IMG/VR virus record: IMGVR_UViG_3300020045_005706
Coordinates: 1 to 39,116 of that record
DNA from: a virus
Lineage: Duplodnaviria; Caudoviricetes
Length of the DNA: 39,116 nucleotides
Reading direction: 5' to 3' (one strand)
Of the stretch, positions 8,803-38,821 are shown piece after piece. Position numbers and translations under genes: made by a program. Position 1 is the stretch's first letter. The number at the start of each line of letters is the position of its first letter. The notes under the pieces were generated by a model that did not search any database, was not told the origin of the DNA, and was given only the letters and a program-made list of their open reading frames with translations.

Positions 8803-9056
8803 CACACTGCACAAACCAATCCTGTAACCAACGCGCCCAATGTGACAATAGCGTGGATATGCGAGACGGCGACCGCGTAGTTTTTTTTGTGCGTAAACCG
8901 TTTGAGCCGTGCAAAGGCTTCGTGTGTACAACTCACCGTTTTGTTTATGTGCTTGGCAAAGGTGAGCGAGAATGCCGTGAGTGCGGGCATAGTGAAAATC
9001 ATTACCGTTTTGTATCGTGTGAGTGGGCTGGATATGGGGATATGAGAAATGCTTAA
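8799..9056 (+). CDS. Cys-rich hypothetical protein
   Basis: CxxxxCxxxxxC and CRECG motifs; GTGA overlap with the previous gene. Confidence 0.55.
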   Translation: MTHCTNQSCNQRAQCDNSVDMRDGDRVVFFVRKPFEPCKGFVCTTHRFVYVLGKGERECRECGHSENHYRFVSCEWAGYGDMRNA

Positions 9057-9792
9057 TCAAATAAAAATAGTTGTGCCGATTAGTGGCGGGAAAGACAGCC
9101 AAGCGTGTTTAAAATTGGCTTTACAAACTTATCAACCTGAACAAATTTTAGGCTTGTTTTGTGATACTCAATTCGAGCATCCGTTGACGTATCAGCACAT
9201 AAAAGACATTAGCAAAATGTACGGGGTAAAAATAGAGACGATATGCGCAGGTAGCGTCCCTGAAAAAGTTCGTAAGCACAATATGTTCCCCAATGGCGTA
9301 AGCCGTTTTTGTACCGACCAATTAAAAATACAACCATCAAAAAAGTTTTATGATGAATTGTCGAGAAATCAAGGCGGGTTTCAGGTCTGGTGCGGCATGA
9401 GGGCAGGTGAAAGCAACGACAGGGAAAAACGCTATCTTGATAAAATAAATACCGAGACATACGCCCCTCATGACGTGTTAGCCAGCTATCCGCAATACTT
9501 ACATAAACAGGGCGTTACATTTAGACTGCCTATTTTAGATTGGTCTTTTACTGATGTTGTTTACTTTTTAGGCGATGAAATAAACCCAATTTATAAAGCT
9601 GGAAAAGGAATTGACCGTGTCGGTTGTTTTCCATGCCTTGCCACAGGCGCAAAAAATCAGGCGCGACATTTTAATTTTGATGATTTTGGCAAGGCGCAAC
9701 GCGATATTGTCATGCAGTTAGAAAGCGAAATTACCAATAAAAACAAATGTCAAGATGATATGTTTCGCGGTTGTTCAATTTGTGCCATTTAG
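9049..9792 (+). CDS. PAPS-reductase-family (PP-loop) protein
   Basis: SGGKDS PP-loop, FCDT..EH..TY, RFCT..LK..P, G.RAGES..R, PILDW, RVGCFPC and a C-terminal CSIC. Confidence 0.85.
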   Translation: MLNQIKIVVPISGGKDSQACLKLALQTYQPEQILGLFCDTQFEHPLTYQHIKDISKMYGVKIETICAGSVPEKVRKHNMFPNGVSRFCTDQLKIQPSKKFYDELSRNQGGFQVWCGMRAGESNDREKRYLDKINTETYAPHDVLASYPQYLHKQGVTFRLPILDWSFTDVVYFLGDEINPIYKAGKGIDRVGCFPCLATGAKNQARHFNFDDFGKAQRDIVMQLESEITNKNKCQDDMFRGCSICAI

Positions 9793-35035: not shown

Positions 35036-37606
35036 TTAATCCTCTTGTAGCTCAATATCAGTGAGCTTCGTAAACCTACCCTCTTTTTTATACCGCACAC
35101 CGATGATTGGCTTACAAGCCATATCGTAAGAGCGGTTCAAAATATCAGCAACGGTCGATACTTCCGCTGTTTCAAATGTTTTTAAATTACTGTAAAAATC
35201 CCGTTCATCATGAAAAAAGCCTTTAAGCATTTCAATGTTATGCGCACGCCAGCCTGATTTATCAGCACGAATCTGAAACCAATGATTGCCTATGTGCTCT
35301 TCATTGTTAAAAAATCGTAGCTTTAGCGACTTGCCACCTTTAGCCGAAACGTGTTCGCTAAAATCCCATGTTGTTACAGGCGAGTAATAATCCATTTCTT
35401 CCTGTTGATGCTGTAATAGCGGAACTGCTTCGGACAGGGGCGTGTATTTGTCATTACCACCGACAATGTAGAACTCTTCGCCGCACTCAATACAGTGTGT
35501 GGCAGTCAGTAAATTGTGCGTGTTGCACTTGATCTCTATGCCCTCAATTTCTTTGATTGCCTGACATTGTTTTGTTGGGCATTCGCCGTTACCGTTTGCT
35601 TTGATAATTGGGTTATCTATTGCTCCCAATCTGGCTATATTGGTTCCGAAATCTGACACGATAAAATCTTTTTTACCCTCGGCAGTTCTAAACCCACGTC
35701 CTACAGTCTGTTTTAGTTTGCTGTTGCTCATCGTGGCATAAAGCAATACTACATGGTCAATATCTCGAACATTGACTCCAGCCACGAACATTCCAACATT
35801 CACGAGATAACGCGGATTGTCATAGTCTATGGGTTCGCTAAACCATGCTAGTGATTCACTTCTATCTGTCAATGGTCTTCCTGATTCGTCTATTTCTTCA
35901 AAATCATCGTAGTTTTTAGATACGACTAACGCGCATTTAATACGATGACTGTGCAGTTCGTGTACGATCAATTCAGCGTTTTCTATAGTGCTTGCAAAGA
36001 TGATAGTTTTACCGCGTTGACAGTCAAAATTAGTGTTGATAATTTCCCGTATTGCCGATGGGATAATCTGTCTTAATGCTTCGCCCTCATCGGCTGTTTT
36101 AAAATCGCCATTGCTTGCCAGCTTGCATTGACTAACATCGGCATTAATAACAGTGTGCCGTGTTACTGGCATTGACAAATATTTTTGCTCAATCAGTTTT
36201 GCCGTGTCAGTTTTATAACAAATATCGGTAAAAAATGGCGGTGTTGGTTCGGTATCGCCACGTTTAACAACCGCCCAAAATAACCAGCCTTGCTTTAATC
36301 GGTACGGTGTTGCCGTTAAACCAACAACTCTACAGCGGGGGTTTTTAATAAGCAGGTCTGACAATGTGCGATGGTATTGCGTGTCATCGTATACACTGAT
36401 TAAATGGCAATTATGTACTAATACCCCTCCAGCGAAATAAGAAGGGTGTCCGCTGACTTGTAAATTGTACATAGGCGTATTGCTTCCTGATTTTTCAATC
36501 GTAACACCCTCCACCCTAACGATTTTAGAAAATTGTCTTTTTTCACGTCTAACAATTTTCTTTTCCCGTTGTGCGATTCCCCGTCCAGCTCTATAGCTAT
36601 TTTTAAATCCTTGTTGCCAATGTCTACCTTGTAGCAGTTCGGATAAACACCATTCCGATGTCCCGCATTCGTTTTTATCGGTAGCTCTGTTTCCCACCCG
36701 ATGCCTAAAATTTCTGCCATTTGTTTTTGCGGCTCTGTTAATTCTTTTCCATTGCCGCCATGGGTTATTGGTTTGTGACCAATTCTTTTTAATGTTTCGC
36801 TCATTTTTTCTTTTACTCCATCCATCCACATAGCATTCTCTTTCTTTTTGGAGCAAGAGATTGAGCAAAAACGGGTTATAAGAAACATTGATTTTGCTAC
36901 AATCCTTCCGTTTGGTCGAATTGGAGTTATTTTTCCTCCGCATTCTTCGCATATCTTGAATGCTAAAAACGCAATTCCGTTTTTCCAATTTTTCAACTCT
37001 AGTCCATCCGTGTTCTGTGAATATAGGATGGTTGTTTGTGGTCTCGATTTCTTTTCCATTGGTAAGTCTCACTTTGTAAATAGTATTGTGATTTTTAACT
37101 GAAACCGACATTACTTCTCCAGTTCCAGTGCTATTATATACTATGTCGCCGCTTCTCACTTCATTAATTTTCTTTTTTCCATTTGGTGTAGATATTAATG
37201 TTTCTCCAGAAAAGCACTCATCAATGACGACTAAATCAAACGCGCGTAAATCATGCAAACGGTTCGCCACTGTTTGGATTGATGTAAAAACTACCTGACC
37301 GCTTAAGTCATAACTTTTCAATCCAGCACAGCAAATACTTAAATCAACATGACCATCAACGCAATCAATCATTGCTTTGCTGTTTTGGTCAACAAGCGTT
37401 TCTGAGTGTGTCAGGTGTAAAACCCTACGTTTCCAGTTGACAGCATCAATGGATAAATCGACAAGCACGATTGATTTACCGCTCCCCGTTTCCATTTCAA
37501 TAATCGGCTTGGCGTTCTTGTCCTCCTTAAACCGCGCATAACACGCGACTTTAGCGTCTGACTGATAATAATGCGGTGTGATGTGTGATTTAAATTTAAG
37601 CATCAT
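35036..37606 (-). CDS. SF2 (DExH, RadD/YejH-like) helicase precursor containing an intein; 587 aa after splicing
   Basis: TGSGKS, split motif II VIDE|CH, GLTATPYR, Q.VGRG.R and a C-terminal Cys cluster. Confidence 0.92.
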   Translation of the reverse strand: MMLKFKSHITPHYYQSDAKVACYARFKEDKNAKPIIEMETGSGKSIVLVDLSIDAVNWKRRVLHLTHSETLVDQNSKAMIDCVDGHVDLSICCAGLKSYDLSGQVVFTSIQTVANRLHDLRAFDLVVIDECFSGETLISTPNGKKKINEVRSGDIVYNSTGTGEVMSVSVKNHNTIYKVRLTNGKEIETTNNHPIFTEHGWTRVEKLEKRNCVFSIQDMRRMRRKNNSNSTKRKDCSKINVSYNPFLLNLLLQKERECYVDGWSKRKNERNIKKNWSQTNNPWRQWKRINRAAKTNGRNFRHRVGNRATDKNECGTSEWCLSELLQGRHWQQGFKNSYRAGRGIAQREKKIVRREKRQFSKIVRVEGVTIEKSGSNTPMYNLQVSGHPSYFAGGVLVHNCHLISVYDDTQYHRTLSDLLIKNPRCRVVGLTATPYRLKQGWLFWAVVKRGDTEPTPPFFTDICYKTDTAKLIEQKYLSMPVTRHTVINADVSQCKLASNGDFKTADEGEALRQIIPSAIREIINTNFDCQRGKTIIFASTIENAELIVHELHSHRIKCALVVSKNYDDFEEIDESGRPLTDRSESLAWFSEPIDYDNPRYLVNVGMFVAGVNVRDIDHVVLLYATMSNSKLKQTVGRGFRTAEGKKDFIVSDFGTNIARLGAIDNPIIKANGNGECPTKQCQAIKEIEGIEIKCNTHNLLTATHCIECGEEFYIVGGNDKYTPLSEAVPLLQHQQEEMDYYSPVTTWDFSEHVSAKGGKSLKLRFFNNEEHIGNHWFQIRADKSGWRAHNIEMLKGFFHDERDFYSNLKTFETAEVSTVADILNRSYDMACKPIIGVRYKKEGRFTKLTDIELQED
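36410..37216 (-). mobile_element. Intein (269 aa, residues 131-399) inserted in helicase motif II
   Basis: Starts CFSGETLI, block B TTNNHPIF, block F MYNLQV, ends VLVHN followed by Cys+1; removal restores DECH. Confidence 0.95.
36418..37059 (-). CDS. Putative homing endonuclease (DUF559/Vsr-like) nested in the intein in the +1 frame
   Basis: CEECG...FCSISC N-terminal Cys motifs; T.P......L...E....YKVDI.....KIAIELDGESH....D.KKD.FL...GWRVLR nuclease motif. The start codon is uncertain. Confidence 0.85.
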   Translation of the reverse strand: MEKKSRPQTTILYSQNTDGLELKNWKNGIAFLAFKICEECGGKITPIRPNGRIVAKSMFLITRFCSISCSKKKENAMWMDGVKEKMSETLKRIGHKPITHGGNGKELTEPQKQMAEILGIGWETELPIKTNAGHRNGVYPNCYKVDIGNKDLKIAIELDGESHNGKRKLLDVKKDNFLKSLGWRVLRLKNQEAIRLCTIYKSADTLLISLEGY

Positions 37607-38332: not shown

Positions 38333-38821
38333 TTATCCATTTATTCCAGAGCCATGTTCTTTATGCCATGCAGTATGGCATTTAGAACAAAGCCAACGGA
38401 CAGTCATGGGATAATTGTAATCGTCATGGTGTCCGTGTAACCGTGATGGTGTGCTGTTGCATCCCTCACAATTTAATGGTTTTATTATTTTTCCATCACG
38501 GACGGCGTTTCCAACTATTGTGCTTGCAGCTCTTTTTATTACATTTTCTTCCGTCCATTTCTCTTTAGCTTTTTGACCTGCTATTTTCCCAGCTTCTGTT
38601 TTTGCATATTCAGACCTTGCTTTAATTCTATGTGGTAAATTAGCTCTTTTTTTCTCATACTCAATATAATGCTCCTTATTATTTTCAATACTGTTTTTTA
38701 CATCTGATTTAGTACATTCCTTGCATTTGTTCAAATGCCCATCTTTCATTTTACTGTGTTTATAAAAATCACTAATAGGCTTTTGTAAATTGCATTTAAA
38801 GCATATTTTTGTATTAATCAT
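38333..38821 (-). CDS. Free-standing HNH-type endonuclease with Zn-finger N-terminus
   Basis: KICFKC...K...FY......CKEC and CEGC......GHHDDY......WLC..CH..WH motifs; AT-rich. Confidence 0.8.
   Translation of the reverse strand: MINTKICFKCNLQKPISDFYKHSKMKDGHLNKCKECTKSDVKNSIENNKEHYIEYEKKRANLPHRIKARSEYAKTEAGKIAGQKAKEKWTEENVIKRAASTIVGNAVRDGKIIKPLNCEGCNSTPSRLHGHHDDYNYPMTVRWLCSKCHTAWHKEHGSGING

Follow-up and report, generated by a model that had tools for sequence, protein, structure and literature searches.

The DNA analysed here (hereafter the window) is the 39,116-nucleotide (nt) stretch at positions 1 to 39,116 of the IMG/VR record IMGVR_UViG_3300020045_005706, which represents a tailed phage, as indicated by its terminase, portal, major head protein, and endolysin genes. 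Its minus strand encodes, at 35036..37606, the 856-amino-acid (aa) precursor of a superfamily 2 (SF2; DExH) helicase (ResIII and Helicase_C domains; phrog_16, DNA helicase) with an extein of 587 aa. The helicase is interrupted by a contiguous intein of 269 aa (807 nt; helicase residues 131-399; 36410..37216, minus strand), running from C1 to H268-N269 and delimited by Pfam matches and by empty alleles. Within the intein and on the same strand, an open reading frame (ORF) of 213 codons at 36418..37059, shifted by +1 relative to the helicase frame (frame 0), encodes a nuclease-like protein. A sequence-only reading of the window, made without database searches, had proposed both a Cys...His-Asn/Cys intein splitting the helicase DECH motif and this +1 ORF, stopping 8 nt before the intein end; both were confirmed, the intein running from 37216 to 36410 on the minus strand, which that reading had left unstated. 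The double coding is real and is under selection in a large phage family.

Class 1 inteins are recognized by an N-terminal Cys or Ser, a block B TxxH motif, a terminal (His)-Asn, a Cys, Ser, or Thr at position +1, and the HINT fold. All sequence traits of this class are present here (C1, T60/H63, H268-N269, and Cys(+1)), C1 and H63 are invariant across 55 inteins, and Pfam Intein_splicing (PF14890) matches the helicase frame above its cutoff (E 8e-10). The insertion splits the motif as DE|CH: the upstream junction consists of the extein Asp-Glu codons of Walker B (37217..37222, minus strand) and the downstream junction of the extein Cys(+1)-His codons (36404..36409, minus strand). The N-terminal splicing region (about aa 1-84, with C1 and T60-x-x-H63; 36965..37216, minus strand) was delimited by the model confidence score pLDDT (predicted local distance difference test), matches to HINT folds, and conservation, and the C-terminal splicing region (about aa 233-269; 36410..36520, minus strand), mostly co-coded with the last nuclease helices, by alignment and models. 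The frame-0 model builds a HINT fold from both ends, with pLDDT of 95-98 over aa 1-90 and mostly 42-55 in the middle, and its best fold match is the gp41-1 intein (E 2e-8). No LAGLIDADG or HNH match was found in frame 0 of the intein (Pfam, E<=0.1). Unlike in a canonical full intein, the endonuclease is not in frame with the splicing domain, frame 0 yielding no nuclease profile and a low-confidence centre. That the centre lacks a nuclease motif and is rich in R, K, N, and W had been noticed from the letters; Pfam and composition agree (intein aa 81-230: R 15%, K 11%, N 12%, W 4%; extein: 5, 7, 5, and 1%, respectively).

The +1 ORF begins after 157 nt of the intein, with a stop codon that ends 8 nt short of the intein end; the first 52 intein codons contain five stops in this frame, followed by 216 open codons. 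Its product comprises a low-confidence N-tail, a four-Cys finger, a linker helix, and a DUF559/Vsr-fold nuclease. Conservation was assessed in 60 sequences. The predicted zinc finger (CxxC...CSxxC; 36853..36951, minus strand), which shows weak similarity to zf-FCS and L24e-type fingers, is formed by C37, C40, C65, and C69, each at least 90% conserved. The nuclease domain (36421..36759, minus strand) carries GGNG, E125, D146, E157-x-D159-G-x-x-H163, and D171; D146, E157, D159, G160, H163, and D171 are invariant, and E125 is at least 90% conserved. DUF559 (PF04480) matches the ORF with E 3.3e-9 and 37 bits (cutoff 20.6), and AlphaFold2, run with the 60-sequence alignment, modelled the product with a mean pLDDT of 87. 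In Foldseek, the catalytic domain of the homing endonuclease I-Bth0305I ranked first (E 1.6e-3), with nothing under the 1e-3 line of the tool. The VIA exhaustive aligner, applied to residues 104-213, returned Z scores of 9.5 for 3HRL (DUF559-type), 8.9 for 3R3P, 8.6 for a Toxoplasma mitoribosome chain, and 8.4 for 1CW0 (Vsr), which tie within about 1; root-mean-square deviations to 3HRL, 3R3P, and 1CW0 were 2.4, 3.6, and 2.8 over 82, 89, and 95 residues. By spacing only, E125, D146, D159, H163, and D171 are plausible equivalents of E170, D196, N208, H213, and D222 of I-Bth0305I, the sequence match to 3R3P being weak (E 0.005). The protein has no PHROGs family, and no NUMOD was matched by Pfam at E<=0.1, short NUMODs being easily overlooked. 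The nuclease identity that had been read from the sequence (DUF559/Vsr-like, with CxxC and CSxxC motifs) held up.

At the +1 stop rate of the extein (0.060 per codon), the probability that the +1 frame is open is about 2e-6, and when the nuclease was shuffled among synonymous codons, frame 0 stayed open in none of 300 shuffles, with a mean of 9.8 frame-0 stops. Neither open frame is thus attributable to chance. Selection was measured by codon-position entropy and by variant counts. Across 28 aligned inteins, the frame-0 wobble position is the most variable in the exteins, before intein nt 225, and after nt 765, and the +1 wobble position between nt 225 and 765; at nt ~720-810, where the DNA of the nuclease helices is also that of splicing block F, variability falls at all positions. 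In the catalytic region, the identity of these inteins to the window is 0.52 in +1 and 0.25 in frame 0. Variants among near-identical copies (40 of 44 shown) follow the same partition: within intein nt 255-690, 19 of 22 are silent in +1, against a share of 0.20 expected at random (p 6e-11, the variants not being fully independent), and 20 of 22 change frame 0. Of 10 variants upstream of the ATG, 6 are synonymous in frame 0 and 1 is so in +1. The expectation that +1 would be constrained in the centre and frame 0 at the ends was thus upheld by both measures. Since variants of the centre are silent in +1 and alter frame 0, the frame-0 centre behaves as a passive shadow.

Codon choice carries a further mark of the overlap: T/C-ending codons before AA, AG, or GA codons end in T in 0 of 1161 intein-borne cases, as an open frame requires, and in 97 of 126 free-standing ones. 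In the +1 register, no amino-acid pair forces a host-frame stop, so this register is easily held by silent changes alone, whereas in +2 such a stop would be unavoidable for 72 of 81 of these nucleases. This property of codon pairs may help explain the +1 register; a single origin is an equally good explanation, and HNH cases in +2 occur.

The ATG at 37059 lies within the Asn53-Gly54 codons of the intein and is preceded, 8 nt upstream, by a Shine-Dalgarno (SD)-like GTGAG (37068..37072, minus strand; duplex -4.9 kcal/mol). Duplex energies refer to the generally known anti-SD sequence. An SD of -4.5 kcal/mol or lower occurs in 22 of 31 open-frame lineages, in which no stop intervenes between this ATG and the nuclease, and in none of 14 closed-frame ones, in which the ATG is present and followed by a stop (Mann-Whitney p 5e-6); the background is 9% of 367 ATGs. 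Among 29 lineages, +1 stops number 0 in 696 codons after the ATG and 112 in 1513 before it; in 43 other lineages, the corresponding stretch has 48 in 1032. Two lineages, L028 and L093, have lost the ATG, and in both a replacement with a strong SD lies 3 nt upstream. Of 46 lineages that start later, 43 carry an ATG of their own ahead of the first CxxC, in 27 cases with a strong SD. In a quick tree, a branch with SH-aLRT 96 separates off the 31 early-start lineages, together with the later-starting L174. The confinement of the SD to open-frame lineages, the distribution of stops, and the compensatory ATGs favour putative internal initiation at ATG 37059 over frameshifting. Of the routes that the sequence-only reading had offered, internal initiation at this ATG is therefore favoured and a frameshift is not; a later TTG, at intein nt 220, was rejected, having an SD of -5.7, yet a position not kept in relatives. 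A search for a promoter of the nuclease's own found 5 sites against 3.9 +/- 1.9 in shuffles, not above chance; the nuclease and helicase proteins therefore probably come from one mRNA, and the uncoupling of nuclease dose from helicase expression that the sequence-only reading had suggested stays conjectural. Neither a regulatory hairpin like that of Dassa et al. (2009) nor any special RNA structure was detected over the start (z -0.02).

Homologues were collected by profile scans, limited to the best 80 stretches out of 116, 167, and 272 confirmed, which yielded 251 loci; removal of 13 listed duplicates, two empty alleles, and matches weaker than E 1e-15 left 125 strong loci, the window included. 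These comprise 105 complete contiguous inteins, 16 other overlapping-frame loci (partial, or with one splicing half undetected, and with the overlapping frame open over at least 354 codons), and 4 free-standing nucleases. In 105 of 105 complete inteins, which form 78 clusters at 90% nucleotide identity with some duplicates left in, the nuclease lies in +1 on the sense strand, and when stops in +1 were looked for, 77 of 78 clusters had at least 170 open codons. C1 is present in 78 of 78 clusters (the set was prefiltered for a C/S/A start and an N/Q end), TxxH in 75, a C-terminal HN in 70 and SN in 8, and +1 Cys in 76 and +1 Ser in 2. The junction is DE|CH in 58 of the 78 and another DE|C/S in 10, the remainder being nearby Walker B variants, and the hosts scanned (n=16) were 10 SF2/SNF2 helicases, 3 terminases, and 3 clamp-loader (DnaX) ATPases. 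A second scan, from the intein frame, added 79 loci, 61 with the +1 nuclease, 14 short, 3 other, and 1 partial; no frame-0 copy of the Vsr-fold nuclease was found among the 79, in a scan biased by the centre of its query and overlapping the first. One of the 14 short loci is a contig-end artefact (L275, 'mini'), and one has a partial nuclease. The nuclease matches 40 GenBank phage records; the three opened show the same layout and annotate only helicase- or host-frame coding sequences, as expected from the suggestion that the nuclease is hidden from annotation.

Several members of the collection deserve separate mention. A 'broken' nuclease suspected in L292, L324, and L322 was dismissed, the first two being intact and L322 being the contig of L073, with 249 open codons. 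L299 had been considered a split intein on account of one frame-0 TAG; translation table 15 opens a 714-aa helicase-intein ORF and lengthens another ORF, and TAG recoding is the likelier explanation. Two related inteins with a non-Walker-B-like junction (L327:1323-2096 and L330:2001-2834) carry, as judged by eye, an HNH-looking ORF in +2, and L287:1231-1758 holds an apparent remnant of it; out-of-frame nucleases are recurrent in this intein lineage. L126 and L127 show weak DUF559-type matches with the intein N-domain on the opposite strand and are possibly of the antisense type of Gosselin et al. (2025). In L119:529-4098, a helicase has an in-frame LAGLIDADG match (aa 253-310) upstream, besides the intein with the +1 nuclease; this match is likely a second intein.

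Occupied and empty alleles coexist. L011 and L012 encode helicases 93-95% identical to that of the window without the intein, and BLAST blocks between them and the window stop at 37214 and restart at 36409, at the junctions. In run X1, an occupied contig (depth 5.5) was found together with a contig joint lacking exactly 807 nt (844-37), and the insertion is accordingly precise and in frame relative to the empty allele. In several pairs, the inteins are also closer to each other than their hosts are: 100% at the nucleotide level against 88% at the amino acid level in the exteins of L053 and L054, and 97.7% against 81% in L031 and L034. Two decay states were seen, one with an internal TAA in the +1 nuclease (L113:2041-2967) and one with an internal deletion that leaves a 167-aa intein and a partial nuclease (L279:248-748). 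Among the free-standing homologues (L065:1513-2148, L066:2324-2965, L105:1246-1833, and L186:2312-3241), three of four run into the beginning of a helicase gene lying downstream, in which no intein was detected, and two of those three helicases have a DE-A motif without a +1 nucleophile; the position of these copies at helicase starts fits the possibility that the element began as a free-standing gene. No support was found, on inspection by eye only, for a pseudopalindromic target across DE|CH.

Elsewhere in the window, a free-standing 162-aa endonuclease gene (38333-38821, minus strand; phrog_2340, E 3e-48) is absent from L011 and L012, the alignment skipping there from ~38893 to 38335/38320, and is probably a second mobile nuclease. 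A PAPS reductase-like gene (9049-9792, plus strand; phrog_424) lies upstream of the lysis and packaging genes.

We consider it probable that the locus is a two-gene element, in which a self-splicing intein in frame 0 is combined with a separately translated Vsr-fold homing nuclease in +1, both functions being predicted. In frame 0, the intein would splice itself out and restore the DECH motif of the helicase, its centre being a passive loop kept merely stop-free. Ribosomes would start internally on the helicase mRNA at 37059, from the nuclease's own SD and ATG, and the nuclease, acting in the predicted manner of an EDxHD homing endonuclease, would cut or nick the Walker B coding sequence of a co-infecting phage that lacks the intein, after which repair would copy all 807 nt into the empty allele. 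The element would have arisen when a free-standing nuclease gene entered a mini-intein. At the level of the family, we lean with some reserve towards one old and widespread intein lineage with a permanently +1-overprinted Vsr-type nuclease, moving between Walker B motifs in ATPases that are unrelated to one another (SF2/SNF2 helicases, terminases, and clamp loaders). Because no in-frame fusion occurs among the 125 strong loci, the overprinted state would be a stable end-point rather than a passing intermediate of published models; in the subclade of the window, the SD and start would have shifted into splicing-domain codons and the last nuclease helices would share DNA with block F, two folded enzymes being co-coded at both ends.

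Several observations weigh against this interpretation. Residues 1-16 of the +1 protein mostly have pLDDT below 50 and intein nt 157-225 keep the frame-0 wobble; the N-tail is therefore not selected as a protein. The SD of the window is modest (-4.9 kcal/mol against a median of -5.6 in the 31 open-frame lineages), and conservation of the intein accounts in part for the ATG, which sits in the intein's [N/D]-G codons and is found in 14 closed-frame lineages, so that its presence alone proves little. The lineages are related, and the p-values overstate their independence. The double constraint, instead of recent transfer, may partly explain the low divergence of the intein (in run X2, 38 differences in 804 positions of the intein and 102 in 894 of the flanks), and it inflates the likeness of inteins between hosts. 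Similarity to DUF559 equals that to I-Bth0305I in strength, and the His is one residue closer than in I-Bth0305I. The DNA at the insertion sites is very different, and one nuclease family would have to find them all. The quick tree (81 rows and 138 columns, with 44 of 78 inner branches open) is compatible with free-standing copies being either ancestral or derived.

The rival explanations differ in which part of the two-gene reading they deny. That compensating sequencing or assembly indels merely pushed an in-frame nuclease out of frame has a negligible probability: such indels were looked for, and the contigs of four other runs cover the intein without any (in run X2, a single piece covers 804 of 807 nt without gaps), the +1 register recurs in 78 clusters and in cultured phages, and the nuclease cannot be in frame because it overlaps codons of both splicing regions. 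The nuclease of the window could instead be a dying relic, open by inertia only, for which the decayed L113 and L279 provide precedents; with its invariant residues all intact and the variants among 95-98% identical copies mostly silent in +1, this is hardly credible.

A programmed +1 frameshift from the helicase frame, which would produce the nuclease fused to the N-extein and part of the intein, is compatible with the shared strand and the probably shared mRNA, and the opening of +1 9 nt before the ATG would leave a small window for the shift. We regard it as very unlikely, however, given that the opening point varies by lineage (nt 52 to 304 in most clusters), that a separate ATG is present in 43 of 46 other lineages and is paired with a strong SD in 27, that L028 and L093 have compensatory ATGs, and that the start lacks special RNA structure (z -0.02). 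Lastly, the nuclease might be expressed and selected without homing to Walker B, as a hitch-hiker active in phage competition or DNA processing, with the intein spreading by ordinary recombination. DUF559 proteins occur widely outside mobile elements, the majority of the weak matches have no intein nearby, and the target DNA differs greatly between hosts, all of which agree with such a role. It is nevertheless unlikely, since 121 of the 125 strong homologues have an overlapping frame open over at least 354 codons and 105 are complete inteins, occupied and empty alleles are patchy, and the nearest characterized fold match is a proven homing endonuclease (PMC3239194).

If the two-gene reading holds, its consequences reach beyond this phage. 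Such inteins would appear in annotations as nuclease-less or decayed (none of the three phage records checked lists a nuclease), and the proportion of phage inteins that are mobile is therefore probably set too low; if the overprinted state is a stable end-point, annotation-based intein surveys would have missed a major class of homing elements. The family offers a large natural series on the rise and persistence of overlapping genes, with free-standing, full, decayed, and empty states present, and is a source of small uncharacterized site-specific nucleases. Its occurrence in cultured phages, among them Pseudomonas phage MR14 and Vibrio lentus phage 1.194.O, makes internal initiation, splicing across the junk loop, and homing directly testable. 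The surprise is limited in that the general idea is already in print.

The layout, whose novelty the sequence-only reading had made subject to a literature check, is not a new kind: inteins with out-of-frame nucleases are already published (Gosselin et al., 2025; Phillips et al., 2026), and the sense +1 Vsr family is a variant of them, of which our literature search, with preprint supplements and subscription journals out of its reach, found no description. Gosselin, Arsenault, and Gogarten (bioRxiv 10.1101/2025.01.02.630785) describe full inteins of actinobacteriophages in polymerase, minor capsid, terminase, and thymidylate synthase genes, with the nuclease as a separate ORF in another frame, typically outside the splicing domain, and propose an origin from free-standing nuclease genes; their Vsr-like nucleases, resembling I-Bth0305I, are antisense, and their sense case is endonuclease VII-like, in frame 3. 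The inteins described here share with them a contiguous intein, a nuclease ORF in another frame, and purifying selection on that frame, and differ from their Vsr-like subtype in being sense +1, mostly located in helicase Walker B motifs, and overlapping both splicing regions.

A cyanobacterial dnaX intein provides another sense overlap, of which Gorbalenya is said by Phillips et al. to have given an earlier account in 1998. As described by Phillips, DeSimone, and Gogarten (bioRxiv 10.64898/2026.09.14.751524), it carries an overlapping LAGLIDADG '+2ORF' and, as in our case, a putative SD, frame-dependent selection, and coexisting full and empty alleles. That system is restricted to LAGLIDADG and one host gene, whereas a Vsr fold and several ATPase families are involved here; the '+2ORF' label follows the authors' own frame numbering.

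The nearest characterized fold match of the nuclease itself is I-Bth0305I, an EDxHD homing endonuclease that acts as a homodimer on a pseudopalindromic target (Taylor et al., 2011; PMC3239194). Both come from phages and have a C-terminal Vsr fold, acidic and His residues that are catalytic in I-Bth0305I and putatively so in the +1 protein, and an N-terminal putative DNA-binding part; I-Bth0305I is intron-encoded, with NUMOD repeats and E-x-N-G-x-Y-W-(H), in place of which the +1 protein has a four-Cys finger and E-x-D-G-x-S-H. The ShiLan insertion (Arsenault et al., 2025; PMC11855218) likewise conceals a nuclease in a second frame with the host frame open, although it is an HNH nuclease without a splicing domain and without a detectable SD. 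Finally, in the fractured genes of Dassa et al. (2009; PMC2677866), a Vsr-like nuclease lies between intein halves on the same strand, and, as here, its 3' end overlaps the C-terminal intein part; gp41-1 is also the top fold match of our frame-0 intein. In that system, the host frame is broken and the intein split, with a 27-51 nt spacer and a 6-69 bp overlap, whereas in the window frame 0 runs uninterrupted through 856 aa, with the whole nuclease overprinted on it.

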